DNA from: an uncultured Chloroflexia bacterium
GTDB lineage: Bacteria > Chloroflexota > Limnocylindria > Limnocylindrales > CSP1-4
Length of the DNA: 64,000 bases
NCBI GenBank assembly: GCA_963829105.1
Contig: CAWHHF010000022.1
Coordinates: 586,196 to 650,195 of the forward strand
Reading direction: 5' to 3'
Part shown: in pieces, positions 6,469-62,835 of the stretch
Layout: each line of letters starts with the position of its first letter
How positions within the stretch are numbered: position 1 is the stretch's first letter
Position numbers and translations under genes: made by a program
Notes under the pieces: generated by a model
What the model saw: only the letters and a program-made list of their open reading frames with translations
Databases searched by the model: none
What the model was told of the DNA's origin: nothing

Positions 6469-6559
6469 CTTCTTGATGTGCGCAGCGATCCTGTAACAGC
6501 CGCCGCACCCGTGCGTCCTACTGGCGACCGGATCGCGGGCGATCCCATTGAACTGACAG

Positions 6560-14155: not shown

Positions 14156-14278
14156 CGCCGAGCCGCGTATGCCGCTGGATAGACAGTGCGGACCATGGCG
14201 CGAATGATAATCCGGCGGACGGCTTATCATCAACGCAGCCAATTGGGCGCTCCTTCCGTCCTCATGAGGTGTCCACCC

Positions 14279-14757
14279 ATGGACTCGACCGTCGCGGCCA
14301 TCTACGCCTTGGGCGCGATCGCGGTCTGGGTCGGCCTGGTGGTGATGCTGCATTTCCTGGAGCCGGAGTTCGACTCTCCTGGCGGATGCTGAGCGAGTAC
14401 TCGCTTGGACGGTACGGCGTGTTGATGCGGGTGGCCTTCATCGCGGGCGGCACCAGCGTGATCGCGGTCGCCGGTGCGCTCTCGGGGTCCGCCTGGCCGT
14501 GGAGTCTCGGCCTCGTGCTCGTTGCGATCGGCCCGATCGATGCCGCGTCCCGACACCGATCTGGTCACCGATCCGGGCCGACGTCGAGGGAAGCAACATG
14601 CACGCGCGCTTGGATCGCTGTTCATCCTCGGCTTCTCGGTGGCGGCGACTGTGGTGGGTATCGCCGCAGCGGGCAGCGCCGCTTTCGGGTCGGTTCTGGT
14701 CTGGGTGTGGTCGCGCTCTGGATCGCGCTCGCGTGGTTTCTCGGGTCGATCGATTAG
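14279..14757 (+). CDS. DUF998-like integral membrane protein, frameshifted
   Basis: MDSTVAAIYALGAIAVWVGLVVMLHFLEPEFD (ORF 14186 frame), then in another frame SWRMLSEYSLGRYGVLMRVAFIAGGTSVIAVAGAL.... A third frame carries further TM segments. Confidence 0.5.
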
Positions 14758-15104
14758 ATACGCGCAGCTGGACGGGGTTGGGTCGCCGCTCGTTTAGATC
14801 GGCTGGTCGAACCGCGTGAGCATGCTCGTGTATCTCGGCTGGGTGGTATTGGTCGCGGTGACGATGCTTCGGTGATCTGCTCCGGTCACGTTGGACGTAG
14901 CAGGTGGCTGAGGTCGGCGCGCTGGGCTTCGGCGTCTCGAGGGTATAAACGTAGTGGTGGACAACTGCGCGGTGGTCGGCGGCGAGCGTAGGACAGTGCT
15001 GCGGGGAGGGTTACGTCGGCGGTTACGGCGTCGAGCAGGCTGAAGTGGGTCGGGTCTCCTCCGGTTTCCTTCGTGGAATCACGAGGACCCGAGCGCGCGT
15101 CCAG

Positions 15105-15629
15105 TCAGCGCGCGAAACGCCAGCGGGTGGCACCGTACGGCTCGGCGGTCGCAACCGCCGTCGCCAGGTCGAACACGAACCGATACAGGTGCCAGGGCGG
15201 GGGACCGGCGCTCGGCGCGCTGTAGGGACCAACGAAGAGCGCACCCTCGACCTCGACCGGCCACCCGCCAGCCCGGAATACCTCCGCGACCCTGCCGACG
15301 AGCCCGGCGTCGTTGACGCGGGTCGACCGGCCCTCGAGGATCAGGTCGATGCCGGCGAGGCGCGCCGAGATGGTGCAGGCCGGGTTTGCCGCGAGGTCGC
15401 GGGCCTTGCGCGTTGCCGGGCCGCTATTGAAGTAGAGGTCTCCCTCGAACCAGACGGCGCCGACACCAGCGGCGTGCGGCATGGCGTTCGGACCGATGGT
15501 CCCGAGGAAGAACGTCACGCTCGGGCCGAGCGAACCGACTGCGAGGATGTCTCGAGGTCGGCGCCACGGGAGAGGCGCGGATCCGTACCGGTCGAGGTTG
15601 GTCGTGGCGACGGGTTGTCGCTCACTCAT
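15105..15629 (-). CDS. pyridoxamine 5'-phosphate oxidase family (FMN-binding split-barrel) protein
   Basis: 174 aa intact ORF. ...LAVGSLGPSVTFFLGTIGPNA...VWFEGDLYFNSGPATRKARDLAANPACTISA is the PNPOx-like pattern. Confidence 0.65.
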   Translation of the reverse strand: MSERQPVATTNLDRYGSAPLPWRRPRDILAVGSLGPSVTFFLGTIGPNAMPHAAGVGAVWFEGDLYFNSGPATRKARDLAANPACTISARLAGIDLILEGRSTRVNDAGLVGRVAEVFRAGGWPVEVEGALFVGPYSAPSAGPPPWHLYRFVFDLATAVATAEPYGATRWRFAR

Positions 15630-36618: not shown

Positions 36619-36630
36619 CAGAGGGACAGC

Positions 36631-39600
36631 ATGAAGTCGCGTCTCGTTTCGCTCGTCGCCGCCATCCTGGTGCTAGGGTCGTCCGTCGCGCCGGCCTATG
36701 CGGCCAACCCCACCCCGACCCCAGCCCCCACACCTGTGACGAAACCGGCCCAGCCACCCGAGAAGCCGCCGAAGGGCGGCACGATGCCGATGGGTCCGAA
36801 GCAGGTGATGACCGCCGCGCAGATGATGGCCGGAATGGTCACCAACGCGGACCGCCAGGCGGCCGCCAAGCGCGCCGCGGCGAAGGGTCTCGTGCCGGCC
36901 ACGCAGAGCATCAAGACGGGCGCCAAGGCGAACGCGGCAGGCGCCAAGTCGATGGCGAAGGCCGCCCTCACCGGCCCCGACTACTTCGGCGCGTTCCCGA
37001 ACTACGCCAACAGCCCGCTGCCGGCCGGCCCCGTCGTCACCATCTCGGGCGGCGGCGCCACGACCGACGCAACGGCGGTCGCGACGCCCGGCGCCAACGG
37101 CACCATCACCGGCTTGACCCTCACCAGCGGCGGTGCCGGCTACACCACGGCCCCCAGCGTGGCCATCACGGGCCCGGCGGGCTCAACCGGCGCCACCGCC
37201 ACCGCGACGATCAGCACGGACGCGGTCGGCTCGGTTGCCGTCACCGGCAACGGCAGCGGGTTCTCGGCACCCGCCGTGATCTTCGGCGGCCCCGGTACTG
37301 GTGCTGCCGCGGACGCCACGGGCGCCGTCGACGCCGTCACCCTCGGGACGCACGGCGCCGGCTACACCACGCCGCAGGTCGTGTTCACCAACGCCCCGCC
37401 CGCCACGGGCGCCGCGGCCACGGCTTCGGGCGGCGTCGACACCATCACGGTCACGAACCCGGGTACCGCCGCCTACACCGCCCCCGTCGTGACGATCGAT
37501 GCTCCGCCCGCTGGCGGCACGCAGGCCACCGCGACGGCCGCGATCGACGGAACCGGCGCGATCACCGGCTTCGTCGTCACGGGCGGCAGCGGCTACACCG
37601 CCGCACCGAACGTCACGATCGCCGACACGGCCCCGGGCACCGGCACGGGCGCCACCGCGAAGGCCACGATCGACATCAGCGCGCTGGCGCTCAGCGCGAG
37701 CGGCGGCAACTACGCGACGGCCCCGGCCGTCCAGATCAACGACGCTGGCGGCACGCCGACCACCGTCGCTACCGCGACCTCGACGATCAACGTCACGACG
37801 ATCACCATGACCGCGGCGGGCAAAGGCTACACGACGGCCCCGAGCGTCACGGTCGTCGACGTCCCCAATGGCGCCGGCACGGGCGTCGTGGCGGCGGCCA
37901 CGGTCACCGGCGTCGTGAACGCCCTGACCCTCGGTGCCGGCGGTTCCGGCTACGTCAGCGGCGGCATCCGCAAGTTTGTGGACACGCTGCCCGGCCTCGA
38001 CCCCACGAAGCCCAATGACCTCGGCCAGTACATCCCGGTCGCCGTTGCCGACACGACGACGTTCCCCAACGCCGACTATTACGAGATCGCTGTCGTCCAG
38101 TATCGCGAGCAGATGCACGCCGACCTGCCGGCGACGCTCCTCCGCGGGTACGTGCAGATCTCCACGTCCGTCGTGCCCGGCGCCCACGTCCAGCTGTTCA
38201 ACGAGAACCTCGACGGCACCAAGACCGCGATCCTCCGCAACGGCCAGCCCGTGTACGCCGTCGACAAGCCGTCCTACCTTGGCCCGATCATCGTCGCCCA
38301 GAAGGACCACGCGACCCGGATCAAGTTCGACAACTTCCTGCCGACCGGGGTCGCGGGCGACCTGTTCATCCCGGTCGACACGACCGACATGGGCGCCGGC
38401 ATGGGCCCGGTCGATACGAGCGGCAACCCGTGCGATCCGGCGACGGGCGGCACCTGCGCGAGCTACACCGAGAACCGGGCGACGCTCCACCTGCACGGTG
38501 GGTTCACCCCGTGGATCAGCGACGGCACGCCGGACCAGTGGACGACGCCCGCCAACGAGACCACGAAGTACCCGACGGGCGTGAGCGTCTCCTACGTGCC
38601 GGACATGTGGTTCGACGCTAACGGCAACCCGGTCCCCGCCGGCACGGCGGGCGCCTCGAATGACCCGGGCGACGGCTCGCTGACGTTCTACTACACGAAC
38701 CAGCAGAGCGCCCGGCTGATGTTCTACCACGACCATGCGTACGGGATCACTCGGCTCAACGTGTACGCGGGCGAGGCCGCCGGCTACATCCTCCAGGACC
38801 CGGTCCTCGACTCCAACTGGACGTGCACGATCCTCGGCTCCTGCGTCGCCAACACGAACAGCCTGGTCAGCAAGAAGGTCATCCCGGCGACCCAGATCCC
38901 GCTGATCATCCAGGACAAGACCTTCGTCCCCGACACGGCGCAGCTCGCCAAGGAGGATCCCACCTGGGACAGCGGCGCGTACGGCGGGCTCGGCAACCTC
39001 TGGTTCCCGCACGTCTACATGCCCAACCAGAACCCGGCCGACCCAGGTGGCGCCAACGCCATGGGTCGCTGGGACTACGGGCCCTGGTTCTGGCCGCCGT
39101 ACACGGGCCTTGCGAATGGCCCGGTTGCGAACCCCAACGCCGGCCCGAGCGCACCCTGGGAGAACTCTCAGAACCCCGGCACCCCCAACCCGTCGCTCGT
39201 CCCCGAATCGTTCATGGACACGCCGGTCGTCAACGGCACGGCCTACCCGGTCCTGAACGTCGACCCGACGTCCTACCGGTTCTCGATCCTCAACGCCGGC
39301 AACGACCGGAACCTCAACCTGTCGCTGTGGCAGTCCGCGGCGAGCTTCGGGACGAACGGCACCAACGGCGTCCCGAACTCCGCGATGTGGACCGGCAAGA
39401 CCCTGAACAACGCGGACTTCGGCGAGGTCCCGATGGTCCCCGCCGTCGCGGGGAACGCCAGCACGGCCGGCTACACCAAGCCCGACCAGCTCGACGGCCG
39501 CGCGGGCGGCGTCCCTGATGCACGCGCAGCCGGCCCGAGCATGATCCAGATCGCGTCCGAGGGCGGTGTCCTGCCGGCCCCGGTCGTGCTGACGAACGGT

Positions 39601-42600
39601 CCCGTCGGCTACAACTACAACCGGCGCGACATCGTCGTCCTGAACGTCTCCAACAAGACCCTGTTCATGGGCCCGGCCGAGCGCGCCGACGTCATCGTCG
39701 ACTTCTCCCAGTTCGCCGGCAAGACCCTCCTGCTCTACAACGACGCCCCGGCACCGGTGCCGGCGTTCGACACCCGGTATGACTACTACACGGGCGACCC
39801 CGACCAGACCACGACCGGCGGCGCCCCCACCACGCTCCCGGGCTACGGCCCGAACACCCGGACGATCATGCAGATCGTGGTCTCCGGTGGAGCGCCCGCA
39901 CCGACGTTCAACCTCGCCCTCCTGCAGAGCGCGTGGAAGGGCCTCGCCGGCGCCTACGCGATGTCCCAGGACAAGCCGATCGTTCCCGAGCTCGGCTACA
40001 ACTCGGCCTTCCCCGGGATTGCCGCGAACAACGCCTACTCCCACATCACCGATCATTCGCTGTGGATCGGCAACCCGGTCAACGGCATCCAGCTCCTGAC
40101 GGGCGGCACCGGCTACACGAGCGCGCCGGCTGTGGGCTTCGTTGGAGGCGGCGGCACCGGCGCCGCGGCGACCGCCACGGTGACCGGGGGTGTTGTGACC
40201 AGCGTCGTCGTCGATTCCAAGGGCACCGGCTACACCAGCGCCCCGGTGATCACCTTCACCGGGGGTGGCGGCAGCGGCGCGAGCGCCGTCCCCATCGGCT
40301 GGATGATGCATGCAGCCGAAGGCGATCCAGGAGCTGTTCGAGACGCAGTACGGCCGGATGAACGCCACGCTCGGCTTCGAGCTCCCGTTCACCAGCGTCA
40401 CCACCCAGACGACCATCCCGATGGGCTACGCCGAGCCCACCACGGAGATCATCTCGCCGTCCGACCTCGGCACCCCGATCGCGACGCTGGGCGACGGCAC
40501 CCAGATCTGGAAGATCACCCACAACGGCGTCGACACCCACACGATCCACTTCCACCTGTTCAACGTCCAGGTGATCAACCGGGTCGGCTGGGACGGCGCC
40601 ATCCGGCCGCCCGACGCCAACGAGCTGGGCTGGAAGGAATCGGTCCGGATGAACCCGCTGGAGGACGCGATCGTCGCCCTCCGGCCGACCCTCCCCGTCC
40701 TCCCGTTCAAGATCCCGGACAGCCAGCGGCCGATCGACGTGACCCGGCCGACCACGGCCATCGATCAACACCTTCGACCCGACCACCGGTAACGCCGTCA
40801 CCGTCATGAACGAGGTGACCGACTTCGGGTGGGAGTACGTGTGGCACTGCCACCTGCTCGGCCACGAAGAGAACGACATGATGCGGCCGATCAAGTACAC
40901 CGTGTCGCCGTTTGTCCCGACGGCCCTACGGCGGCCAACCAGAATTCCCGGCGCCCTGCCAACACCCGCCCTATCAGCAGGTCAAGCTGGACTGGACGCA
41001 CGTCTCCGCGACCTACCCGAAGACGACGAACTTCGTCGTTCGGCGGGCCACGGACGCGGGGTTCACGCAGAACGTCACGATGTTCGGCCTGCAGCCGACG
41101 CCGCAGACGGCGCCGACGATCACGCTGACCCGACCTTCACCGACAAGACCGTGGCCAACGGCACCCAGTACTGGTACGAGGTTCGTGCCGAGAACTCCGT
41201 CGGCTACTCGGCGTGGTCGGCGAGCGCCACCGTCACGACGGCTGCGGGTCTCAACGTGACCGCCTCAAGCGCGACGATCACCTACGGGCGCCTGTCCCGA
41301 CGATCACGCCCAGCTACGCCCGGCCATCCCGCGCCGGGCGCCGTCGCTGATTTCCACGGCGCCGGTCTGCACCACGACCTACACGCAGGGTCGCCGGTCG
41401 GGCACCTACCCGACCACCTGCACGGGCCCCGCGTTCCGATCCGGCACTACCTCTTCATCACCTACTTCCAGGGACTGATCACGGTCACCCCGGCGCCGCT
41501 GACCATCACCGCCCCGAGCGGCACGTATCCCTTTGGCGGCCCGGTGCCGGCTCTCGCCCCGACCTATACCGGGTTCGTGAACGGTGACACGCCGGCTTCG
41601 CTGACGGGCACCGTCACCTGCACCCCGACCTTCACGACCACCACCGCAGCCGGGACCTACCTCACCACCTGCAGCGGCGCGACGAGCACGAACTACACCA
41701 TCACCTACGTCCCCGGCTCGGTCACGGTGACGCCAGTGGCCTTGGTCATCACCGCCTCGAGCGTCATCTCCACCGATGGTCTACGGCGCAGCCCGGTCCC
41801 GTTGATCATCCCGAGCTACGCGGGCCTCGTCCCGGTGACACTGCGCCGGCGACGCCACCAACCTGCTCGACGACGGCCATCATCACCTCGCCGTCGGGCA
41901 CGTACGCTGTCGAGCTGCTCGGGAGCGGTCGACCCCAACTACACCATCACCTACGTCCCCGGCGTGGTCCATGTGACCCAGGCTGCCCTCGCCATCCCGC
42001 GCCAAACGGCACGATGGTCTACGGCGGCCCGGCGATCTCACGCCGACGACCTACGTCGGCTTCGTCAACGGTGACACGGCCGCAAGCCTGACGAGCCGCG
42101 CCAGCGTGCACGCCGGTCATCACCTCGACGACACCGGTTGGCTCGTATATCACCGGTTGCTCCGGCGCCGCCAGCCCGAACTACGTGTTCGTGTACATGC
42201 CGTGGGCCTCGTCACGGTGACCGCGGCCGCCGCGACCGTCACCGCGTCCAGCGCGACGATGGTCTACGGTGGGGCCGTTCCGGCGATCACCCCGACCTAT
42301 GGCGGTCTGCTGAACGGCACGACGGCTCCCGCCACGCTGCCGATCTGCTCGACCACGGCCACCAGCACCTCGCCGGTCGGCACGTACCCGTCGAGTTGCA
42401 CCGGGGCCGCTGATCCCAACTACACCTTCACGTACGTGGCCGGCACCGTCACGGTCACCAAGGCCGCTGCGACGACGGTCGTGACCAGCAACGTCAACCC
42501 CTCCGTCCACGGGCAGTCCGTGACGTTCACCGCCACGGTGACCCGGTCCAGCGCCGGTACGGGTGCCGTGCCCAGCGGCACGGTCCAGTTCAAGGTCGAC

Positions 42601-44782: not shown

Positions 44783-45330
44783 ATGCAGCGGGACCTGGTC
44801 GAGCGGGCACGCAACGGGGACGCGGACGCGTTCGCCGAGCTGGCGGGACTCGCCGGCGACCGCCTGTACGCGATCGCTTCAAGGATCCTTCGTGACGGCG
44901 ACCGCGCCGCCGATGCCACGCAGCAGGCGCTCATCGCCATCTGGGAGGGACTGCCAGGCCTCCGCGACCCGGACCGCTTCGACGGCTGGGCTTGTCGGAT
45001 CGTCGTGAACGCGAGCTACCACGAGGCTCGTCGCGCGGGACGGTTCGCGGCGCGCGTCCACGAGATCCGCGCCGCGGCAACCGTCGAGGACGAGGTCGTT
45101 GCCGTGGACGATCGCGACGAGGTGGACCGCGCGTTCCGGCGGCTACCCCCGAGCACCGCGCCGTGCTGGTGCTCCACTACTACGCTGGCCTGCCCGTGAC
45201 GCGGATCGCCGACGTCCTCGGGATCGCCGACGGCACGGCGGCGTCCCGACTCCACCACGCGACCCGGCGACTACGCGCCGCCGTCGTTGCTGATGCGCGG
45301 ACAGAGGCCGCCTGGAGGACCACGGCGTGA
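44783..45330 (+). CDS. ECF sigma factor, one frameshift near 45150
   Basis: MQRDLVERARNGDADAFAELAGLAGDRLYAIASRILRDGDRAADATQQALIAIWEGLPGLRDPDRFDGWACRIVVNASYHEARR (region 2). Region 4 is in the ORF 44992 frame (EHRAVLVLHYYAGLPVTRIADVLGIADGTAASRLHHATRRLR). Confidence 0.75.
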
Positions 45331-46202
45331 CGCGGGAACCCAGCCTCGACGACCGAACGGTCGACTGGCTCCGCGAGGGCCCGGAGCGGGCTCCGGACTG
45401 GGTGCTGGCGTCCGCGGATGCGCACGCCAGAGCCCATCCCCGTCGAGGCTTCCGCGCGCGGCTGCGCGGGAGGTTCCTCCCGGGCCCGATGCGACTCGTC
45501 CGCGCCGAAGAGAAGACCGGCGAGCGCCACGTGTCGCGGTCGTGGGCCGGAAGGGTCTCCATCGCCGCAATCCTCCTCGTCGTCGTCGGGTTCGCCATGG
45601 GAACGCAGTGGGATCGTGGCTTCCCGCCTGCTGCAGGGCCCTCGGGTCTTCCATCCCTCGAGGCCCTCTCGGCCGTGCCGGTCACCCTGTCCGCCACTTG
45701 CCCAGTGGCCACGAACGCCGTTGACACCCAGTCGGGCGGGATCACCCGGACGCGCGGAGGCCGGCTCCGCTGCGATACCGCGAGCGCCGACCCTCGCCCC
45801 GCCGGTACGGCGGACATCTTCCTGAGCATCGACCGGCGGCCGGACGGCACGACCGCATCGCCGGCGGCCAACGCCGATGAGGCTCTCATGGCCGACCTCG
45901 ATGCCATCTGGGGTGGGACCGCCGACGCGGCCAAGGTCGCGGCGGTCTATGCGCCCGACGCGGTGTTCCACGACACGCTCGAGGGCAAGACGTATATCGG
46001 TCTCGAGGCGATCCAGGCGAAGGTCGCAGCGAACGCGTCTGCAGGCTTCAGGTGCGCGCAGACCTCGGCATCGATCCGGCAGGACAGCTTCGTCGCCGTC
46101 TTCCATCGGTTCAGCGCCGGAGGAGTCACCTACCCGGTCCTCGCAGTCTTCGAGCTCAAGGACGGCGAGGTCATCAACCAGTGGGCATACCCCGCACCCT
46201 AG
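45327..46202 (+). CDS. putative anti-sigma factor: TM-anchored, C-terminal SnoaL-like/NTF2 domain
   Basis: GTG start overlaps the sigma stop. The TM helix is VSIAAILLVVVGFAMG. The C-terminus ...AVYAPDAVFHDTLEGKTYIGLEAIQAKVAAN...YPVLAVFELKDGEVINQWAYP is NTF2-like. Confidence 0.6.
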   Translation: MTREPSLDDRTVDWLREGPERAPDWVLASADAHARAHPRRGFRARLRGRFLPGPMRLVRAEEKTGERHVSRSWAGRVSIAAILLVVVGFAMGTQWDRGFPPAAGPSGLPSLEALSAVPVTLSATCPVATNAVDTQSGGITRTRGGRLRCDTASADPRPAGTADIFLSIDRRPDGTTASPAANADEALMADLDAIWGGTADAAKVAAVYAPDAVFHDTLEGKTYIGLEAIQAKVAANASAGFRCAQTSASIRQDSFVAVFHRFSAGGVTYPVLAVFELKDGEVINQWAYPAP

Positions 46203-47161
46203 CTGGACCGCTCTGCCGCGACTGGCTGCGCCGCCGGATATCGGGCGCACTGCACGTGGGTCGGCGACAGGCACCTCGACTTCTGGTGAGCCGCGTCGAT
46301 CGGTTTTGACTGCGCGGAGCGGGCCATGCCGATGGCGAACCGTCGGCGGGACGCGAACGACGTGGCGCCCCGGTTCGAGGTCGCGTGGCAGAGGTTCCTG
46401 GGATCCGGGAAGTCGCAACGGGTCGAGGGATCGTCCCGGAACCCGAGAAACGGGCAGACGGGAACGCCGGAAAGGGCGAGGCGGGCACCCGAGGATCCGG
46501 GCCCGGGATCGCGACCGAGGACGATGGCGGCCGGATCGGCGCTCTCGGCGGCCGGACGGGACTCACTGGCGGCCGGACGGGACTCACTGGCCGCGGCAAC
46601 GGCGCTCCCGGCGGCCGGCCCGGACTGGCCGGCGGCAACGGCGCTCCCGGCGACCGGCCCGCGGACTCGACCGGCGGCGGCAACGGCCACGGTCGCCGAA
46701 CGAGCCACGGTCGTGGCGCCGGGCACGGTCGTGCCAGCGAGCGTCGTCCCGCCGGCCATGGCTGTCCCGCCGGCCAGCGTCGTCCCGCCGGCCATGGCTG
46801 TCCCGCCGGCATCGCCGGGGTATCGAGGGCTGCGCCTGGCCGCCGCCGGGACCCTGCGGCCGGCCGGAGGGGCGTCCGGCTTTGGTGGACCCGGGGAACT
46901 CTTCGCCGCGTGGCAGGCGTAGCAGTGGTTGGCCTCGCGACGGTTCAGCGAATGGCAGGTGAGGCACGCCCAGAACCCATCCTGACCGACAAGAGCGGCG
47001 AGCTCCTCGGGCGAGGGCTGCGAGCCGCGCTTTGCCCCGGGCGCGACGTTGCCTGCCTCCGCGGTGCCCGGACGTGCGCGGAGCGCATGGTTGATCAACC
47101 AAGCCGCCGCGAGTCCGAGGAGGAGCGCGACGAACAGGACGATACCCAGCTCAGGACTCAT
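46199..47161 (-). CDS. membrane-anchored protein with two CxxCH motifs (putative di-heme c) and Ala/Gly/Pro-rich repetitive region
   Basis: An N-terminal TM helix (IVLFVALLLGLAAAWLI), then FWACLTCHSLNRREANHCYACHAAK. Both Cys pairs are followed by His. Internal DNA tandem repeats at about 46540-46810 encode AGGTxxAGGTTLAG and ESRPAAS units. The C-terminus is Cys-rich. Confidence 0.5.
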   Translation of the reverse strand: MSPELGIVLFVALLLGLAAAWLINHALRARPGTAEAGNVAPGAKRGSQPSPEELAALVGQDGFWACLTCHSLNRREANHCYACHAAKSSPGPPKPDAPPAGRRVPAAARRSPRYPGDAGGTAMAGGTTLAGGTAMAGGTTLAGTTVPGATTVARSATVAVAAAGRVRGPVAGSAVAAGQSGPAAGSAVAAASESRPAASESRPAAESADPAAIVLGRDPGPGSSGARLALSGVPVCPFLGFRDDPSTRCDFPDPRNLCHATSNRGATSFASRRRFAIGMARSAQSKPIDAAHQKSRCLSPTHVQCARYPAAQPVAAERSS

Positions 47162-47511: not shown

Positions 47512-49506
47512 CTAGTCGTCCCCTCCGTTACCGCGCGGGTGGCACTTCGCGCACGTCGTCATCACCCCGCCGTGATGCGAGCGCATGTTCGAGTGACATC
47601 TGGCGCAGGAGTAGCTGGTGTACCCGGACGGGTGGCATCTCGAGCAGACCCCGCCGGCGCCGCCATGGCTCTGGGGGAAGGTGTGCGGCCCGCCGTACTT
47701 CGCGGGCAGCCAGGCCCTGGTCGTGTGGCAGGACGCGCAGCTGTTGCTGAAGCCGCTGCCGTGCGAGGAAGGCTTGGTGTGGCAGGCCGAGCACGTGGTC
47801 GGCGTTCCCTTGTACCGGCCGCCCTTGTGACAGCGCAGGCACGCGACGCTCTTGTGGGCCCCGGTCAGCGCGAACTTCGCCTTGGCGTGGTTGAACGACG
47901 CGGGCAGCCAGGCGCGGGTCGTGTGACAGGATCCACAGCTGCTGCCGTAGGCGCTGCCGTGCGAGGCGGGCTTGTTGTGACAGGCGGAGCACGCGGTGGG
48001 CGTTCCCGTGGTCTGTCCCCCTCCGTGGCACTTCTGGCAGGTCACGCTGCGGTGGGCCCCGGTCAGGGGGAACCTGGCCTTGTTGTGGTTGAACGACGCG
48101 GGAAGCCAGGCGCGGGTCGTGTGACAGGACGCACAGCTGCCGGCGAAGGCACTGCCGTGCGAGGCGGGCTTGTTGTGACAGGCCGAGCACGCGGTCGGTG
48201 TTCCCGAATACTGGTTCCCGGTGTGGCAGCGCTGGCAGGTCACGCTGCCGTGGGCCCCGGTCAGCTGGAACTTCGCCTTGTCATGGTTGAACGACGCAGG
48301 CAGCCAGGCCGTCGTCTTGTGGCACGACGCACAGTCCTTGCCCAGGGATCCGTTGTGCTGGTCATCACCGGCGTGACATCCGATGCACGTCGTGGGCGTG
48401 CCGACATACCGGCCGTTGGCATGGCAGGCGACGCAGGCGGGCTTGGCGTGCGCGTCGGTCAGGGCGAACCGCGTCTTCGTGTGGTCGAAGGTGACGTCCT
48501 TCCAGCCGGTCGCCGCGTGGCAGTCGGCACAGTCGCCCGGGAACTGGTCGGCGTGCGGGTTGACGGCCGCGTGGCAGCTGCGGCAGGTCACGCCGATCCC
48601 CGTCCAGTGACGGTCGACGTGGCAGGACTCGCACGCCGTCCCCACGTGCTGCCCGACGAGGGCGAAGCGCGTCCGACCGTGGTCGATGGTGGCGTCTGCC
48701 CAGGTCTTGGTGCTGTGGCACTCCGCGCAGTTGGTCCCCAGACGCCCCTCGTGGATGTCCTTTGCCGCATGGCAGGAGATGCAATCGGTCGACGTGGCCT
48801 GCAGCGCCGCCACCGTGGTCGCCCCGAGATGACAGCCTGCGCACGGCGTCCCCTCGTGGCCCCCGGTCAGGGGGTAGGTCGCGTGATCGAATGACTTCCC
48901 GTACCTGTCCACGCCGTCATGGCAGTTCAGGCAGGCCGTGCCGAAGGTCTCCTGGTGGGTCGCCATGAACGGCTGGTCGAGCGCCTGGTGGCAGGCGACG
49001 CAGGTGGGCGCTGAGAACGTCTGTGGCGAGCCGGGGTGGCAGTCGCGGCAGCCGACGCCGCCGGGCTGGCCGTTGAGCGGGTGCGCGGCGAGGGAGAACC
49101 CGGTCTGCTCGTGGGGGAAGATGCGCGGATCGGCCAGCGTCAGCGACGCGGTCGCTCCCCGGTGGTCGGTGTGGCAGTCGCGGCAGTTGGCCGCCGACGA
49201 CTTGAGCAGGCGCCCGTGCAGGCCACCCGCCGTGGAGATCTCCTGCTGGACCTGGGTGTGACAGGCGAGGCACCGGTCGGCCATGCGGGCATCCGACCAG
49301 GCGGCCACGTGACAGGCGTCGCACTTGCCCGCGAGGTCGGCATGGGAGTTCACGCCACCGACCGGCCCGCCCTGGGCCACGCCGCTCAGCTGGCCCGGGC
49401 TGAAGATCCCGTTCCCGGTGACGGCCGTGGCGCCCAGGATGGCGAGGCCCAGCAGGACGGCGGCAGCCAGCGCCGAGAAGGTGAGACAGCCAAGGGGACG
49501 GCGCAT
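47512..49506 (-). CDS. multiheme c-type cytochrome, 27 CxxCH motifs, secreted
   Basis: 665 aa from MRRPLGCLTFSALAAAVLLGLAILGATAVTG (signal peptide). There are 27 CxxCH motifs (CDACH, CLACH, CRDCH ... CARCH, CAKCH). Three near-identical about 57-aa modules TCQ(R/K)CH...GTPTACSACHNKPASHGSA...SC(A/G)SCHTTRAWLPASFNH.KA.F.LTGAH. Confidence 0.85.
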   Translation of the reverse strand: MRRPLGCLTFSALAAAVLLGLAILGATAVTGNGIFSPGQLSGVAQGGPVGGVNSHADLAGKCDACHVAAWSDARMADRCLACHTQVQQEISTAGGLHGRLLKSSAANCRDCHTDHRGATASLTLADPRIFPHEQTGFSLAAHPLNGQPGGVGCRDCHPGSPQTFSAPTCVACHQALDQPFMATHQETFGTACLNCHDGVDRYGKSFDHATYPLTGGHEGTPCAGCHLGATTVAALQATSTDCISCHAAKDIHEGRLGTNCAECHSTKTWADATIDHGRTRFALVGQHVGTACESCHVDRHWTGIGVTCRSCHAAVNPHADQFPGDCADCHAATGWKDVTFDHTKTRFALTDAHAKPACVACHANGRYVGTPTTCIGCHAGDDQHNGSLGKDCASCHKTTAWLPASFNHDKAKFQLTGAHGSVTCQRCHTGNQYSGTPTACSACHNKPASHGSAFAGSCASCHTTRAWLPASFNHNKARFPLTGAHRSVTCQKCHGGGQTTGTPTACSACHNKPASHGSAYGSSCGSCHTTRAWLPASFNHAKAKFALTGAHKSVACLRCHKGGRYKGTPTTCSACHTKPSSHGSGFSNSCASCHTTRAWLPAKYGGPHTFPQSHGGAGGVCSRCHPSGYTSYSCARCHSNMRSHHGGVMTTCAKCHPRGNGGDD

Positions 49507-49520
49507 CGGCTTCGCTCGCC

Positions 49521-50198
49521 TCAGCGGAGCAGCGTCGCGTAGTAGATGGCACCCGCGATGTGCGCGATCGCCAACACGAACAGCGCCATGCCCAGCGGGA
49601 TGTGGATGGCGTGCCAGGTCGCCAGCGCCCGCCGCGCCCAGCGCAGCGCCGCCATCTGCCGTTCGAGCTCGCGCAACCGGCGCGCAGGCGCCGGATCCGG
49701 GCGCCCGGCCACGGCAAGAGCGATCGCCGTGCCCGCCAGCGCGGGATGCGCCACCTCCTGCCTGGCGGCTTCCAGCTGCAGCTGCAGGACCTGCGCCTCG
49801 ATCACGATCCCGTCCGCCGTCCGGGGCGTGGCGGTGTAGATATACCGCCCGATGAACCCGCTGATGACGACCACCACCACCATGACGGTCAGCGCCCCCG
49901 CCAGTCCGTTGAAGCTCCAGGCCGAATGGAGGACGACGAGGTAGGAGCCGACGATCCCGGTGAAGATGTGGAACTGCAGCCACGCCCGCATGCTGCCCCT
50001 GGGCCGGTGCATGGCCCGCTTGCGCAGCGAGTAGAGCGTCTCGGTCATCAGCATCAGGACGAACCCGACGATCCCGAGGGAGTGGCCCAGGAGGCCGCTC
50101 GCCGCGGGGACGCCGACGGACTTCACGAAGCCTGCATAGAGGCCCGTGATGACGACCACCACCACCAGGGCCAGCACCAGCTCGCTATACCGTGCCAA
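49521..50198 (-). CDS. integral membrane protein, 5 TM with conserved His (putative b-type heme membrane subunit)
   Basis: 225 aa. TM helices contain H (LLGHSLGIVGF, WLQFHIFTGIVGSYLVVLHSAW, WHAIHIPLGMALFVLAIAHIAG). The ORF sits between the oxidoreductase and the cytochrome and overlaps the oxidoreductase by 14 nt. Confidence 0.6.
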   Translation of the reverse strand: MARYSELVLALVVVVVITGLYAGFVKSVGVPAASGLLGHSLGIVGFVLMLMTETLYSLRKRAMHRPRGSMRAWLQFHIFTGIVGSYLVVLHSAWSFNGLAGALTVMVVVVVISGFIGRYIYTATPRTADGIVIEAQVLQLQLEAARQEVAHPALAGTAIALAVAGRPDPAPARRLRELERQMAALRWARRALATWHAIHIPLGMALFVLAIAHIAGAIYYATLLR

Positions 50199-51504
50199 GC
50201 GAGGCCGTCCTCTCCACCAGGGCCCGGAGGGCCCCGTGGACCTCTGCCGGGCCCCGGAACAACCGGTCCCGGACCCAGCGGATGTCGACCCGCTCCCGGA
50301 TCAGGTGCTGCAGCGGACGGGAGAGAGCCTGGTCGCCCATGACCACCGCGCCCATGATCCGCTCGTCGCCCAGCACGAGTCGGAGGTGGTTGGCGTCCCT
50401 GTCCGACACCACCGCGAAGGCGTCCAGCTGCTCCCGCCACGCGTGGCTGTCGCCCCGGGCGAGGGTCACCAGGTCGCCCTCCCGGTTGCCGGTACCAACC
50501 GCACCGATGAGTGTCGTGGTCACCCCACCGATCTTGGTCACGTTGAACGGCGCCGGTCGGCGGTACGGCTGGCCGACGCCGCTCAGGTACTCTCCGGCGA
50601 CCCGTCCCTGTTCCATGGAGACCGACCAGAGGCTGTCGACCGCCCGCTTCCCGGTGGCCGGGTCGAGCACCTCGGCCGCGTCGCCGGCCGCGAAGATGTC
50701 GGGGTCGCTGGTCTGGAACGTGGCGTCGGTCCAGATGCCGCGGCCTGTCTCGAGGCCCGCGCCCTGCGCGAGCTCGAGGCGCGGCTGGGTGCCGATCGCT
50801 ACGGCGAGGATGTCACACGGCAGCACGACGCCGTCGCGGGTCCTGACCGCCGAGACCCGGCCGTCACGCCCGATGACGCTGGCGAGCTCCACGTTGCGGT
50901 GAAGCCGGATCCGGTCTTCCGCCAGGCGCGCTTCCACCAGCGACGACTCGTGCGGATCGAGCACGCTGCCCCAGTAACGGTCACCGCGCATCAGGTAGTG
51001 GACGTCGACGCCGTGCGCCGCGAGACCCTCCGCCAGCTCGACCGCCGTGATCCCGCCGCCGACGACACATGCCCGCTTGGCCCGGCGCGCGAGGCGGAGG
51101 ATGCGCCGGACGTCCTCCAGGTTGTCCAACGTCACGACGCCCTGCAGCTCGATCCCGGGGATCTCCGGCCTCACGGCACGAGCCCCGACCGCCAGCAGCA
51201 GGCGGTCATACCGGAGCGCCTCGCCGTCGGCCAGCTCGAGCCGGTGACCCCGGGGCTCGATCGTCCGCACCGTCCCCACCGTCCGCTGGACGTGCGCGCG
51301 CTCGTAGGCCGAGTCCGGGCGCGAGAAGAGCCGCTCCTCCGGGATCGCGCCGGTCAGCACGTAGGCCAGGCCGGGTCGGGAGTAGAACCCGGCGTTCTCG
51401 CCCCCCACGATGCGGATGTCGCCAGACTCGTCGTGGCGCCGGATCGTCTCCGCGGCCGTCACGCCCGCCGGTCCGTTGCCGACGATCACGTAGCGTCGAG
51501 CCAT
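50185..51504 (-). CDS. FAD-dependent pyridine nucleotide-disulfide oxidoreductase family protein
   Basis: MARRYVIVGNGPAGVTAAE (FAD GxGxxG) and ACVVGGGITAVELAEGLAAHG (NAD(P) GxGxxA/G). About 440 aa, NirB/rubredoxin-reductase-like. Confidence 0.8.
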   Translation of the reverse strand: MARRYVIVGNGPAGVTAAETIRRHDESGDIRIVGGENAGFYSRPGLAYVLTGAIPEERLFSRPDSAYERAHVQRTVGTVRTIEPRGHRLELADGEALRYDRLLLAVGARAVRPEIPGIELQGVVTLDNLEDVRRILRLARRAKRACVVGGGITAVELAEGLAAHGVDVHYLMRGDRYWGSVLDPHESSLVEARLAEDRIRLHRNVELASVIGRDGRVSAVRTRDGVVLPCDILAVAIGTQPRLELAQGAGLETGRGIWTDATFQTSDPDIFAAGDAAEVLDPATGKRAVDSLWSVSMEQGRVAGEYLSGVGQPYRRPAPFNVTKIGGVTTTLIGAVGTGNREGDLVTLARGDSHAWREQLDAFAVVSDRDANHLRLVLGDERIMGAVVMGDQALSRPLQHLIRERVDIRWVRDRLFRGPAEVHGALRALVERTASLGTV

Positions 51505-51505
51505 C

Positions 51506-51736
51506 TCAACCGCCACCGAGAAGCGACGAGTCGCCGAACACGGGGGACACCTCGAACCGGAGCGTGCCACGCGGACAGCGGGCCACGCATTCGCCGCAGG
51601 TCAGGCAGTAGCGATCGGCGACCGGCTGGCGCAGGCGCACCTTGGCCCGGATGTCGATGCCCAGCGGGCAGTTGTAGGTGCAGATGCCGCACTCGACGCA
51701 GCGGTTCGGTTCTGCGACGAGCACCCCCGAGACCAT
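51506..51736 (-). CDS. 2x[4Fe-4S] ferredoxin
   Basis: 76 aa. CVECGICTYNCP and CLTCGECVARCP. The stop abuts the oxidoreductase start. Confidence 0.8.
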   Translation of the reverse strand: MVSGVLVAEPNRCVECGICTYNCPLGIDIRAKVRLRQPVADRYCLTCGECVARCPRGTLRFEVSPVFGDSSLLGGG

Positions 51737-52523
51737 GGCCCGCCGCTTCAGCTTCTCGCGGAGCAGGAGTCGCGCGGGCAGCGCCCTCGTTTCGGGGCAG
51801 CCCCGGCGCCGGTGTCGACGATGGCGACGGCGTTGCGGTGGCGCCCGTGCCCGCAGTCGAACGTGGCCCGCGCACGGCCAGGGCCAGCCGGCCGATCATC
51901 GGCGCGCGCCCCGCGGGACGGCAGCCATCGGGAGGCCCGCCGTGCCGGATCCCGCCGCCGGCGACACGACCGCGCCCCAAATCATGACCGGGGCGTCGTT
52001 CGCGAGCCGCGGCATGGCGAAACGGACCGGCCCGCGGGAACGGGTGCGGTGGTTCGGCCCGGGGACGGTCGTCATCGGCGAGCCTCGCAGGGTGGATGGG
52101 ACGACCAGCCGGGATCCCGGTGGACGGTGCCGGCGGTCGATGGTGTCACCTCTCCTGTGCCGTCAGCCCGTGGAAAGGTTTCACCCCGTTCGCGGATTCC
52201 GGCGGCACACGGATCGAACGCCGGGACGGCCCGGACGCGACGCGATGCCGGGCGGGCCGGCCGCGCCCGCCTCGTCCTGATCCCGGCGTTGAGCGTTGCC
52301 GCGCGCCCACAGTCCACCCCTCCCGCTCCCATGCCGGACAGGATGACGGCGCGCCGCGCCGGGTGGTATGGCACGAATGGGGGAGTCATGCCCAGTCAAT
52401 CGGGTCGGCGCCCGGGGCTCAACCCGGCTCTGCCGACGACCCGCCTGTGCCGCCGCCTCGCACGGTCGACCGCTCAACTCGTATCCTTCGGTCGTGGCTG
52501 AAGCGGTGACCCCGGATCCCGCG

Positions 52524-59638: not shown

Positions 59639-59997
59639 CCCGCTGCCCTCCTCGTGGGGCTGCGCATCCGCGGATCGAGCCACCTCGCAGGCGCAGGGCG
59701 TCCCTGGCTCGACCTCCTGGATGGCGCCAGTGGAGCCGATCGCGAAGGGGACGGCCAGAGGCACATCGGCCCGAGATGTGTGACGAACGTCACACGCCAT
59801 AGATGTCACATCAGAGGAGGTGCGCCGGAGCCCTGGACCCCAGCGCGAGCCGGTCGAGGTCGAGCCGGGGTCCGGCCGGTCGAGGCCACCGGGGCATAAT
59901 GGCGCGGTGCCCGGGTGGATCACCCGGATGATCGCGGTCCACGGGGCGCAGGAGCGCTCGCGGCCGGCCGGTCGCACATGCCAGCAGGAGTCGCGAC

Positions 59998-62835
59998 ATG
60001 GACCAGCAGACGACCGTGAGCCTGGTGGTGAACGGCCGCCCACGCAGCCTCGACGTCGCGCCGGGGTGGAGGCTGCTGGAGCTCCTGCGCGAGGGGCTGG
60101 GCCTCGTCGGGACCAAGGAGGGCTGCGACGACGGCACGTGCGGAAGCTGCGTGGTGATGGTCGACCGGAAGGCCGTGCGCGCCTGCCGCACCCCCGCGAC
60201 GGGCGTGGGCGGCAAGGACGTCCTGACGATCGAGGGGCTCGGGAGCACCACGAGCCCGCACGCCCTCCAGCAGGCATTCGCGGCCGCCGATGCCGTCCAG
60301 TGCGGGTTCTGCACGCCCGGGATGATCATGGCGGCCGCCGCGCTGCTCGATCGCAATCCCCGGCCCAGCCGGGGCGAGATCGTCCGCTGGCTGGGGAGCA
60401 ACCTGTGTCGCTGCACGGGCTACGCGGGCATCGTGGACGCGATCGAGTGGGTGGCGAACGGGCAGCAGGGCGCGCCGCGCCGATGGCCGGCGGGCCCGGA
60501 GCCCGGCAGCCCGGCGTGGTCTCCGGAGTCGTCGTGGTCGACGGAGTCGACCTGGTCGCCCGAGTCACCGCGGCCGCCGGAGGCCGCCGGGCACCGACGC
60601 ATCGACGCGCTGGACAAGGCGACCGGCCGAGCCAGCTACGCGGCGGACCTGACGGTCGACGGGATGCTGCACGCGCGCGCTCTGCGGAGCCCGCATGCCC
60701 ACGCCGACATCCTGCGCATCGACACGGGGCGCGCCCGCCTGGTGCCGGGAGTCGAGGCGATCCTGACGGCACGGGACGTCCCGGGGCTGAACAGCTATGG
60801 ACGCAAGGTGAAGGACGAGCCCGTCCTCGCGGAGTCCAGGGTCCGGAAGGTGGGCGATCCCGTCGCGCTCGTCGTGGCGACCTCCCCGGAGGCCGCGGCC
60901 ACGGCCCTCTCGATGATCGAGGTGGAGTATCGCGAGCTTCCCGCCGTGTTCACCCCCGAGGATGCGCTCGCGGACGGCGGCCCGCAGATCCATGAGGGTG
61001 GCAACCTGCTGGCCGAGCACTCACTCCGGTCGGGTGACACGGGGGATGGGTTCGCCGGCGCCGACGTCGTGGTCGAAAGCACCTACACGACCCCATGGAA
61101 TGAGCACGCCTACCTCGAGCCCGAGGCCGCGCTGGCCACCTGGGAGGGCGACACGCTGGTCGTGCGGACGGCGACGCAGTACTCCCACTACCACCGCTCC
61201 GAGATCGCGCGGACGATGGGGCTGCCGCTCGAGCGCGTCCGGGTCATCCCCACCGTCGTGGGGGGCGCGTTCGGAGGCAAGACCGAGATCTCGTGCCAGT
61301 GCCTGGTGGCGCTCGCCGCCTGCCGGACGGGCCGGCCGGTCAGGATGGTCTACAGCCGCGCCGAGTCCTTCGAGACGACCACGAAGCGGCACCCGTACCG
61401 GATCCGGGTCCGGATGGGCGCGACGAGTGGCGGCGAGCTCACCGCCCTCGAGGTCGACATGCTGGCCGACACCGGCGCGTACGCGTCGTTCGGCCCCGGC
61501 CTGATGGTCAAGACGTTCGCATCCGCGACCGGGCCCTACCGCTGGCCCGCCGTCGACCTCCACGGCCGCGTGGTGTTCACCAACAACCCCACCGCCGGGT
61601 GCATGCGTGGGCCGGGCACGACGCAGGTCGCGTTCGCCGTGGAGTCGCAGATGGACCAGCTGGCCGAGCGGCTGGGCATGGATCCGCTCGATCTCCGTGC
61701 GCGAAATCGCCTGCGGCAGGGCGACCGCCTCCTGTCCGGCCAGATCCTCGGGCGCGACCCGGCCTACCTCGCGACCCTGGAGGCCGTCCTGCCGCACTGG
61801 CGCGCGGCGCTCGAGCGACGTGCCGAGGCCTCCGATCTGCCGGCCACGCGGCGGCGGGGGGTGGGCGTGGCGTCGATCTGGTACGGGATCGGCGGAGGAG
61901 GCGGTGGCCCGGTCCCCGGACACGATCCGACCGCCACGGTGGGGCGAGGGCCGGGACGAGCCGCCCTGGATCTCCGCGAGGACGGCTCGGTCCGCGTGCG
62001 GACCGGAGCGGTCGACCTGGGGCAGGGGAGCACCACCGCCATGGGCCTGATCGCCGCGGAGGAGCTCGGTGTGCCGTTCGAGCGCATCGAGGTCCAGACC
62101 GGGGACACCGGCACCTGCCCCGATGCCGGTCCCGCCGTGGGCAGCCGGGTGACGTTCTTCGTCGGCAACGCCGTGCGGAACGCCGCCGCCGATCTCCGGG
62201 AGGCGATCCTCGGGACGGCGAGCGGGCTCCTGGACCGGCCGTTCGGCGACCTGGAGCTCGGCGATGGAATGGTCAGGGTACGCGGCGACCACGGGGCCTG
62301 CGTCCCGTTGGCCGAGATCGCCCGGGTCAGGGCGGACGCCGGGCGGACCAACACGTTCGACGGCTACTTCGACGCCGACGTCCCGGCGTTCGATGCCGGC
62401 TCCGGGCTCGGCGAGCCGTACGCGATGTTCGTCAGCGGGACACAGATGGCGGAGATCGAGGTCGACACCGAGTCCGGGACGGTCCGGGTGCTGCGCGTGG
62501 TCGCCGCCCACGACGTCGGCAGGCCGGCCTTCGTCGAGGGCGTGATCGGCCAGATCGAGGGAGGGATCGCGATGGGCGTGGGCTTCGCCCTCAAGGAGGA
62601 CTTCGTCGTCGGCCGGACCCGCGGCTTCAAGCACTACCGGATCCCCAGGACGACCGACATGCCGGAGATGGTGACGATCCTGGTGGGTCAGCCCGGTGAC
62701 CCGCCGGAGCTGGACTTCAAGGGCGTGGCGGAGTGCTCGAACATGGTCGTGGCCCCGGCCATCACGAACGCCATCGCCCATGCGCTGGGCCAGCGGGTCC
62801 TCCACCTGCCGGTCCGACTCGAGGGCCGGGCCTGA
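59998..62835 (+). CDS. xanthine dehydrogenase / aldehyde oxidase family molybdoenzyme, fused [2Fe-2S] plus molybdopterin-binding subunits (no FAD domain)
   Basis: N-terminus CDDGTCGSCVV...CGFCTPGMIM...CRCTGY (2x 2Fe-2S). Then a Ser/Pro linker. Then the MoCo domain (TPWNEHAYLEPEAALA, GGAFGGK, ...AGCMRGPGTTQ...). Confidence 0.85.
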   Translation: MDQQTTVSLVVNGRPRSLDVAPGWRLLELLREGLGLVGTKEGCDDGTCGSCVVMVDRKAVRACRTPATGVGGKDVLTIEGLGSTTSPHALQQAFAAADAVQCGFCTPGMIMAAAALLDRNPRPSRGEIVRWLGSNLCRCTGYAGIVDAIEWVANGQQGAPRRWPAGPEPGSPAWSPESSWSTESTWSPESPRPPEAAGHRRIDALDKATGRASYAADLTVDGMLHARALRSPHAHADILRIDTGRARLVPGVEAILTARDVPGLNSYGRKVKDEPVLAESRVRKVGDPVALVVATSPEAAATALSMIEVEYRELPAVFTPEDALADGGPQIHEGGNLLAEHSLRSGDTGDGFAGADVVVESTYTTPWNEHAYLEPEAALATWEGDTLVVRTATQYSHYHRSEIARTMGLPLERVRVIPTVVGGAFGGKTEISCQCLVALAACRTGRPVRMVYSRAESFETTTKRHPYRIRVRMGATSGGELTALEVDMLADTGAYASFGPGLMVKTFASATGPYRWPAVDLHGRVVFTNNPTAGCMRGPGTTQVAFAVESQMDQLAERLGMDPLDLRARNRLRQGDRLLSGQILGRDPAYLATLEAVLPHWRAALERRAEASDLPATRRRGVGVASIWYGIGGGGGGPVPGHDPTATVGRGPGRAALDLREDGSVRVRTGAVDLGQGSTTAMGLIAAEELGVPFERIEVQTGDTGTCPDAGPAVGSRVTFFVGNAVRNAAADLREAILGTASGLLDRPFGDLELGDGMVRVRGDHGACVPLAEIARVRADAGRTNTFDGYFDADVPAFDAGSGLGEPYAMFVSGTQMAEIEVDTESGTVRVLRVVAAHDVGRPAFVEGVIGQIEGGIAMGVGFALKEDFVVGRTRGFKHYRIPRTTDMPEMVTILVGQPGDPPELDFKGVAECSNMVVAPAITNAIAHALGQRVLHLPVRLEGRA

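Follow-up and report, generated by a model that had tools for sequence, protein, structure and literature searches.

How electrons released in the metabolism of Chloroflexota could be passed on to the multiheme cytochromes of these bacteria is the question raised by four adjacent genes, which encode a ferredoxin (fdx), a flavoprotein (oxr), a membrane protein (memb) and a 27-heme cytochrome c (cyt). They were found in a window of 64,000 nucleotides, this being the whole stretch of DNA analysed. The window is closest to metagenome-assembled genomes of the Limnocylindria type, and its host is a Limnocylindria-like member of the Chloroflexota, which refines the label "monoderm-like" that it had received in an earlier note on this DNA. 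Sediments, aquifers, digesters and anode communities are rich in Chloroflexota, and we know of no defined route leading from the metabolism of these bacteria to their multiheme cytochromes. As argued below, we regard it as moderately likely that one membrane complex, encoded by the four genes, exports electrons from NAD(P)H to extracellular acceptors. Members of the phylum, especially the Anaerolineae, have repeatedly been suspected of extracellular electron transfer (EET) or interspecies electron transfer on account of their very large multiheme cytochromes (bioRxiv 10.1101/2021.08.23.457424; PMC7399161).

The four genes are consecutive, co-oriented open reading frames (ORFs) on the minus strand, occupying positions 47512-51736 in the order fdx-oxr-memb-cyt, just as the earlier note had placed them, and they are packed as an operon (Table 1). 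Two of the three junctions described before needed correction. The stop codon of fdx (TGA, 51508-51506) is not shared with the start of oxr but is separated from its ATG by one base (TGA-G-ATG), and the gap between memb and cyt measures 14 nt instead of 15 bp; the 14-nt overlap of oxr and memb was measured at the same value. A terminator scan rendered no terminator-like site on the coding strand within the cluster. The matches that it produced inside a 198-bp tandem repeat of cyt were discarded as artefacts, since they lie on the non-coding strand only. A scan for the sigma-70 consensus rendered no match either, the presumed promoter region ahead of fdx included.

Table 1. Positions in the window of the four genes and of the elements associated with them
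Feature	Position	Strand	Basis
Ferredoxin, 76 aa, 2x[4Fe-4S]	51506..51736	-	Pfam Fer4 matches, Cys motifs, orthologues
FAD/NAD(P)H oxidoreductase, 439 aa, ferredoxin/rubredoxin-reductase type, glutathione-reductase fold family	50185..51504	-	Pyr_redox_2
Membrane protein with five transmembrane helices, 225 aa, TTG start, putative di-heme cytochrome b, unannotated family	49521..50198	-	
27-heme c-type cytochrome, 664 aa, nine tandem c7-type triheme units	47512..49506	-	CxxCH motifs, Cytochrome_C7
198-bp tandem DNA repeat, 3.2 copies, 81% match	47701..48334	-	Tandem Repeats Finder
N-terminal hydrophobic helix of the cytochrome, residues 8-30, probable signal-anchor	49417..49485	-	Conservation of the flanking motifs
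Presumed promoter region	51737..52367	.	Intergenic, between the cluster and a divergent gene at 52368 (ORF map)

The first two products are of well-known kinds, and their assignments in the earlier note hold. The ferredoxin carries the motif CxxCxxCxxxCP twice, at residues 13 and 44, and passes the cut-offs of several Fer4 models of Pfam, including Fer4_10 (E = 1.7e-9, 37.9 bits against a cut-off of 25.5) and Fer4_9 (E = 5.6e-9), as expected for a 2x[4Fe-4S] protein; an orthologue of it sits upstream of oxr at related loci. The ORF of oxr extends over 50185-51570, but the sequence and the length of its orthologues (438-439 aa) leave little doubt that translation begins at the ATG at 51504, which would give a protein of 439 aa. 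That protein belongs to the pyridine-nucleotide-disulfide oxidoreductase family (Pyr_redox_2, PF07992, E = 2.7e-53, 181.7 bits against a threshold of 26.1). Its best solved relative is AorC, the FAD/NAD subunit of a tungsten aldehyde oxidoreductase (8c0z_E, E = 1.5e-44), which shuttles electrons between NAD and a polyferredoxin subunit by way of its FAD; after it rank NADH oxidases and the reductases for rubredoxin, putidaredoxin and biphenyl-ferredoxin. The best match among the NCBIfam models is PadH-like (NF045765, E = 1.2e-54), at 185.7 bits against an equivalog cut-off of 475, so that the protein is not assigned to PadH, the epsilon subunit of NADH-dependent phenylglyoxylate dehydrogenase. 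The only Cys residues are Cys145 and Cys229, a redox-active Cys pair being absent. This, together with the solved relatives, indicates that the flavoprotein is, judging from its sequence, of the NAD(P)H:iron-sulfur-protein oxidoreductase type and not a disulfide reductase, and with its Pyr_redox_2 score it falls within the ferredoxin/rubredoxin-reductase type. That its top solved relative is AorC, a partner of an iron-sulfur (FeS) protein, and that it lacks a redox-active disulfide are both counted here in favour of the electron-exporting complex proposed below.

At the other end of the cluster, the ORF of cyt spans 47512-49983 and its real start is the ATG at 49506 (MRRPLGC...). The protein contains exactly 27 CxxCH motifs, the number given in the earlier note, along with 56 His, 55 Cys and 5 Met residues, whereas by chance the motif would occur 0.38 times on average and 4 times at most (2000 composition-preserving shuffles). 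Seven stretches of it match Cytochrome_C7 (PF14522, E = 1.9e-36, 124.1 bits against 24.8), Cytochrom_c3_2 is matched as well (E = 2.5e-27), and the motifs fall into nine CxxCH triplets, in accordance with the c7/c3 triheme unit of ca. 65-70 aa with three CxxCH. Units 4 to 8, which are 63 aa long as delimited and recur with a period of 66 aa, have six His each. With 56 His for 27 hemes, this is enough for bis-His ligation of every heme, and all the hemes look bis-His. The 198-bp repeat is the DNA of the last units, one repeat being one 66-aa triheme unit, and units 6 to 8 of the protein are nearly identical. No PDB chain was matched at E <= 0.01, and an NCBIfam scan with the same limit rendered only HmcA (30.2 against 400 bits) and nanowire_3heme (TIGR04257, 20.6 against 40 bits), both below cut-off. 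Among the families that have a curated NCBIfam model, none of NrfA, Hao, OcwA, Otr, MtrA/C, CbcL and ImcH was matched, which agrees with the earlier statement that the cluster fits no canonical complex (Nrf, Hao, Otr, Mtr or Cbc).

The N-terminus of the cytochrome, which had been read as a signal peptide, appears to be of a different nature. It consists of [RK]-[RK]-P-L-G-C-x-T, ca. 20 hydrophobic residues and F-S-P-G-x-L, and is conserved from Limnocylindria to Anaerolineae in proteins with 35-45% overall identity. Such conservation would not be expected for a signal peptide that is cleaved and discarded, so that the helix is probably a retained membrane anchor, and it is probably packed against the membrane protein. 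It can also be noted that Cys7, in the stretch R-R-P-L-G-C (residues 1-7, 49486-49506), is invariant from Limnocylindria to Anaerolineae and lies on the cytoplasmic side of the helix. It is not a lipobox Cys, since it is located before the hydrophobic stretch, and it could serve for acylation or for contact with the membrane protein or the ferredoxin.

The membrane protein reaches the threshold of no Pfam or NCBIfam model, and it belongs to a large family, with more than 4500 proteins at E <= 1e-3 in a 90%-clustered database and 3214 representatives, 1579 of them at E <= 1e-10, in a library clustered at 50% identity. Five transmembrane (TM) helices, as proposed before, are backed by the hydropathy profile and by an AlphaFold2 (AF2) model with a predicted local distance difference test score (pLDDT) of 72. 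The protein has eight His in total, one more than had been counted; six of them (H39, H77, H91, H196, H199 and H213) are invariant in close orthologues, and four (H77, H91, H199 and H213) are conserved in at least 90% of 61 diverse family members with 27-69% identity, as are W73, W195 and the cytoplasmic R59-K60. These four His form two pairs, H77/H91 on TM3 and H199/H213 on TM5, with a spacing of 14 residues in each. The loops formed by residues 59-73 and 123-195 contain 6 and 10 Lys+Arg, respectively, and the positive-inside rule therefore places both in the cytoplasm, including the Arg-rich helical hairpin of residues ca. 123-195 (128-190 helical in the AF2 model and hydropathy profile), with TM3 and TM5 both running from the inside to the outside. 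In this orientation H77 and H199 would lie near the inner face of the membrane and H91 and H213 near the outer face. An arrangement of two His pairs of this kind ligates two stacked b hemes in the cytochrome b of the bc1 complex and in ferric reductases of the NOX type.

A Pfam scan of the same 61 members rendered only sub-threshold matches, which clustered in families of transmembrane cytochromes b (Ni_hydr_CYTB in 12 members, the best of them attaining 1e-4, DUF4405 in 7 and Ferric_reduct in 3). With the membrane protein of the window itself, Ni_hydr_CYTB (PF01292, prokaryotic cytochrome b561) scored 19.4 bits against 30.1, and Ferric_reduct (PF01794; NOX/FRE/MsrQ) scored 16.7 bits against a cut-off of 28. 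Comparisons of the family by hhalign were not significant with Escherichia coli MsrQ (probability of 2% with the shallower and 0.3% with the second alignment) or with E. coli CybB, and the family profile found only noise among PDB sequences. An alignment of H77/H91 to H151/H164 of MsrQ was obtained with the shallow profile only, at the 2% probability just mentioned, and is not relied on. The protein does have the His pattern of a PF01794-type TM domain, in which each of two parallel TM helices bears a His pair spaced by 13-14 residues. In summary, we very probably have here an unannotated family of di-heme cytochromes b, with a distant relationship to the transmembrane cytochrome b superfamily, and the conservation of the four His in the 61-member alignment strengthens the earlier suggestion that the TM His residues of the protein could hold two b hemes. 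As for variants of the family, one seeming fusion of membrane protein and cytochrome (P0219) consists of a junk linker and a truncated membrane part and was set aside as a likely frameshift or gene-call artefact. Some other relatives (P0128, P0136 and P0137) have N-terminal cytoplasmic extensions with GYF_2 domains or zinc-ribbon-like segments, which fit an N-in topology and hint at extra cytoplasmic partners.

A search for the gene neighbourhood in other genomes, which the earlier note had suggested as a check, gave strong results. With one representative genome scanned per species, relatives of the membrane protein were found to be encoded in 448 genomes, and the best 80 of these 448 are all from Chloroflexota (Limnocylindria including Candidatus Aquidulcis, Anaerolineae and Caldilineales). 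Gene order could be determined at 66 Chloroflexota loci with enough flanking DNA: all four genes lie within 8 kb at 65 of them, 53 show the order fdx-oxr-memb-cyt, and the departures from that order are permutations. The genes flanking the four vary between loci (L001-L003 were examined), and the module is therefore autonomous. At most loci the adjacent cytochrome has 12, 15, 18, 21, 24, 27, 30, 36 or 42 CxxCH motifs, with ca. 2 His per heme, so that whole triheme units have evidently been gained and lost, as far as these sequences can tell. Heme numbers that are mostly multiples of three, together with the 198-bp tandem repeat, would fit a wire of adjustable length.

The linkage extends to a second phylum. 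A membrane homologue with 27% identity (P0263) comes from Ignavibacteria, and the gene that adjoins it encodes a single protein in which a TM helix at the N-terminus is combined with a ferredoxin domain (2x[4Fe-4S]) and a domain of the Pyr_redox type, the flavoprotein part of this fusion being of a different subfamily (YpdA/TrxR-like). After the fusion gene come a 20-heme c7-like cytochrome and then, on a long contig (L091), a 28-heme cytochrome; L091 extends past both cytochromes, and a second Ignavibacteria locus (L092) ends within the second one. Directly after the two cytochromes, L091 encodes a 545-aa protein (13964-15601, plus strand) that has a signal peptide, alternates in a strand-like manner along its sequence and ends in Phe. 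No Pfam match was found for it, and it may possibly be the outer-membrane barrel of a stage of the porin-cytochrome type. The four functions thus recur in Ignavibacteria in another gene order, with two of them fused, with a membrane-anchored cytoplasmic module and with a non-orthologous flavoprotein. Nothing else in the data argues as strongly for a joint action of the four parts at the membrane as this recurrence, which includes a fusion of the Rosetta-stone kind.

If the four proteins form a physical complex, electrons could leave the cell in the following way. The flavoprotein would oxidise NAD(P)H on the cytoplasmic side, and single electrons would pass from its FAD to the two [4Fe-4S] clusters of the ferredoxin, which would dock onto the Arg-rich cytoplasmic hairpin of the membrane protein. 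Two b hemes, an inner one held by H77/H199 and an outer one held by H91/H213, would carry the electrons across the membrane with no need for quinones, and the outer b heme would reduce the first heme of the 27-heme cytochrome, tethered beside the b subunit by its N-terminal helix. The nine triheme units would then act as a wire of ca. 25-30 nm through the envelope to insoluble or polymeric acceptors, the candidates for which are Fe(III)/Mn(IV) oxides, humics, a partner cell and possibly O2. Midpoint potentials and membrane potential favour the outward direction: NAD(P)H, at ca. -320 mV, is more reducing than bis-His hemes of the c7/c3 type, at ca. -100 to -250 mV, and the negative-inside potential helps to drive electrons out of the cell. 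Passing electrons outward through two b hemes would conserve no energy, and the complex would therefore be a vent for excess reductant, which might suit fermentative Anaerolineae, interspecies electron transfer or extracellular reductions. The length of the wire is estimated by analogy with GSU1996 of Geobacter sulfurreducens, a 12-heme cytochrome described as a 12-nm protein in a title that PMC10138318 cites; by the same measure, 27 hemes would be enough to cross a thick monoderm wall.

Tandem c7-type triheme domains on one polypeptide are shared by the window cytochrome and the poly-c7 "nanowire" cytochromes of G. sulfurreducens, of which GSU1996 and GSU0592 have 12 hemes and GSU2210 has 27, exactly the number found here (PMC10138318). 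In contrast to these soluble, periplasmic proteins, the window cytochrome has a conserved N-terminal membrane helix and membrane and cytoplasmic partners of its own; it also fails the nanowire model (20.6 against 40 bits) and is without a PDB match at E <= 0.01. Besides, the domains of GSU1996 contain a His-Met heme, whereas the window cytochrome, with only 5 Met, appears to be all bis-His. As regards the membrane step, NOX, ferric reductases and MsrQ (ferric reductase domain, FRD, superfamily) likewise lead from a cytoplasmic NAD(P)H flavoenzyme through two stacked b hemes to an outside acceptor and have His pairs 13-14 residues apart, which in NOX2 stand on two parallel TM helices. They differ in that a fused FNR-like domain is replaced here by a separate flavoprotein of the glutathione reductase (GR) fold and a 2x[4Fe-4S] ferredoxin, in that the acceptor is a multiheme cytochrome, and in sequence (Ferric_reduct, 16.7 against 28 bits; MsrQ, hhalign probability of 2%).

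Tmc and Hmc of Desulfovibrio are also alike, in that a multiheme protein of the cytochrome c3 family on the outside is combined with a cytochrome b in the membrane and an FeS protein in the cytoplasm. They pass electrons directly through the membrane; their b subunit is NarI/HdrE-like, the cytoplasmic partner is an HdrD-like CCG protein, and the electrons run inward to sulfate reduction. The cluster was not found to belong with them, HmcA scoring 30.2 against 400 bits and a CCG-domain protein being absent in and beside the cluster, and a flavoprotein-free version of the module was not seen here. CbcL and ImcH of Geobacter and the flavin-based EET of Listeria (Ndh2, EetAB, PplA) similarly link a cytoplasmic or membrane reductant to extracytoplasmic EET carriers, the latter being an NADH-driven route in a monoderm that uses flavinylated proteins and not hemes. 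To our knowledge, however, the known EET entry points (CymA, ImcH, CbcL and Listeria Ndh2/EetAB) all run through quinones, and we know of no ferredoxin and GR-type flavoprotein co-inherited with the membrane subunit in the case of CbcL, ImcH or Listeria EET. Finally, AorABC (AorC/AorA) and the PadH module, which hold the closest solved or curated relatives of the flavoprotein, share with the module a ferredoxin-like FeS partner, but the catalytic subunit with W/Mo or thiamine pyrophosphate is absent here and the partner chain ends in a membrane cytochrome. By analogy, the module resembles a transmembrane complex of cytochrome c, cytochrome b and FeS protein of the Tmc/Hmc kind that is wired to NAD(P)H, and it is NOX-like in logic.

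Several points weigh against an outward, NAD(P)H-driven complex. The case for heme b is built on the conservation of the His residues and a moderate model (pLDDT 72), given that no family threshold was reached and that the comparisons with MsrQ and CybB were not significant. An AF2 model of the cytochrome computed with 14 orthologues had a pLDDT of 41.5 and was unusable, the extended wire shape being drawn by analogy. The AorC and PadH relatives of the flavoprotein physiologically reduce NAD+, so that homology leaves the direction unfixed, and the potential of a 2x[4Fe-4S] ferredoxin is often lower than that of NAD(P)H. Many of the hosts are Limnocylindria of oxic soil or water, in which dissimilatory metal reduction is not expected. 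Moreover, FdnI, HyaC and CybB, relatives within the b-type families that were weakly matched, are quinone-reactive, which leaves room for a quinone step.

Such a step is the basis of the alternative that survives best, although we consider it unlikely. The membrane protein would then be a quinol:cytochrome c oxidoreductase or a quinone reductase (CbcL/FdnI-like) and the polyheme cytochrome would be fed by menaquinol, not directly by NAD(P)H, while the ferredoxin and the flavoprotein would act as an alternative NAD(P)H dehydrogenase that supplies the menaquinone pool, or have some other use. The commonest weak family match, Ni_hydr_CYTB (12 of the 61 members), and the best natural fold match, CybB, both point to quinone-reactive families, but every family match is below threshold, and a quinone-site motif was not identified, though no rigorous search for one was made. 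The tight coupling of the parts would not be needed with a diffusible quinone pool: oxr and memb overlap by 14 nt, flavoprotein and ferredoxin are inherited together with the membrane protein at 65 of the 66 loci, and in Ignavibacteria ferredoxin and flavoprotein are a membrane-anchored fusion beside the membrane homologue. It speaks for quinones, on the other hand, that the inner-membrane entry points of EET, namely CymA, ImcH and CbcL, are quinol oxidases (PMC6295460).

It can also be the case, although this strikes us as rather improbable, that the same complex serves a purpose other than respiration, such as extracellular Fe(III) reduction for uptake, reduction of O2 to superoxide in the manner of NOX, or keeping envelope components reduced. 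The module is present in the Limnocylindria and Candidatus Aquidulcis lineages, whose members live mostly as aerobic heterotrophs in soil and fresh water, and the logic of NOX, FRE and MsrQ (NAD(P)H, flavin, two b hemes, outside) serves such purposes elsewhere; low-potential bis-His hemes, furthermore, autoxidise readily. A wire of 12-42 hemes would, however, be costly for a purely assimilatory role. The second large cytochrome and the possible outer-membrane barrel that L091 adds resemble trans-envelope respiratory conduits, and genes for iron uptake or related to reactive oxygen species are not conserved beside the module in the neighbourhoods examined (the window and L001-L003).

The reverse direction, in which the polyheme cytochrome would take electrons from cathodic minerals, a partner cell or Fe(0), and b hemes, FeS clusters and FAD would use them to reduce NAD(P)+, is very improbable, since any donor would need to be a stronger reductant than NAD(P)H, the negative-inside potential would also oppose the entry of electrons, and the cluster has no energy-coupling or bifurcating component, even though AorC and PadH-like proteins, the nearest flavoproteins that have been characterised, physiologically draw on FeS chains to reduce NAD+ and Tmc/Hmc, the nearest architectural analogues, carry electrons inward. 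Bidirectional EET is reported for a Chloroflexota isolate, Ardenticatena maritima, but through a different 7-heme cytochrome (PMC5808234), an unrelated protein that was rejected as an equivalent of the one described here.

Export of electrons from NAD(P)H by one membrane complex is the reading that we retain. In its broadest form, which we put forward only tentatively, the module would be an unrecognised, quinone-independent NAD(P)H:extracellular-acceptor oxidoreductase, a split version of the NOX type, with a wire of 12-42 hemes tuned to the thickness of the envelope by triheme duplication. It would be the main route of EET or direct interspecies electron transfer in Chloroflexota (Anaerolineae and Limnocylindria), and the same device would operate in Ignavibacteria with an outer-membrane stage.

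Some other features of the window were observed. The CcdA-type gene indicated earlier at 5160-5979 is real according to Pfam (DsbD_TM/CcdA-like), and it is preceded by a glutaredoxin-like (DUF836) gene (5160-6671, minus strand). The same pair, plus a thioredoxin-fold AhpC/Redoxin gene, is found in L001 ca. 7 kb from the module, and the pair may supply reductant for cytochrome c maturation. Downstream of the cluster, a gene at 46199-47161 (minus strand) encodes 320 aa with an N-terminal TM helix, a CLTCH...CYACH sequence and Ala/Gly/Pro-rich repeats (18-39-bp repeats in the DNA). The protein has no Pfam match, and it was rejected as a part of the module, given that CLTCH and CYACH stand in a zinc-ribbon-like CxxC...CxxC context and that it is not conserved beside the module in L001-L003. 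Farther on, a sigma factor of the extracytoplasmic function (ECF) type at 44783-45330 (plus strand) is split over the frames 44783-45199 and 44992-45330, with region-2-like and region-4-like parts in different frames, and a frameshift or sequencing error near 45150-45200, or a pseudogene, may lie behind this; the next protein (45327-46202) has a SnoaL_2 domain and is possibly an anti-sigma partner. An ORF of 1396 aa at 36619-40809 (plus strand) has a coding-like GC content at third codon positions and no Pfam match at E <= 0.001, and around it, at 38-42 kb, the GC content is lower (0.68) and the GC skew strongly negative (-0.14 to -0.15). A 967-aa fusion at 59932-62835 (plus strand), with [2Fe-2S] domains (Fer2, Fer2_2) and hammerhead and molybdopterin-binding domains, belongs to the xanthine/CO dehydrogenase family and has no connection with the module.

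In the searchable literature, subscription-only work lying outside the search, no description of this module was found. Papers on large cytochromes of Chloroflexota note their abundance and variable heme numbers without reporting this gene set (bioRxiv 10.1101/2021.08.23.457424; PMC7399161). The parts are of known kinds, their combination is uncharacterised as far as we could find, and it includes a large unannotated membrane family. The module represents a concrete four-protein candidate route, present in at least 448 species-level genomes and in a second phylum, and built around a membrane family with thousands of members. Should the bypass of quinones prove true, it would amount to a new design principle for EET, one in which electron export is a vent that balances the redox state of NAD(P)H rather than an energy-conserving chain, and the four genes would also offer a compact set of parts for engineering electron export.

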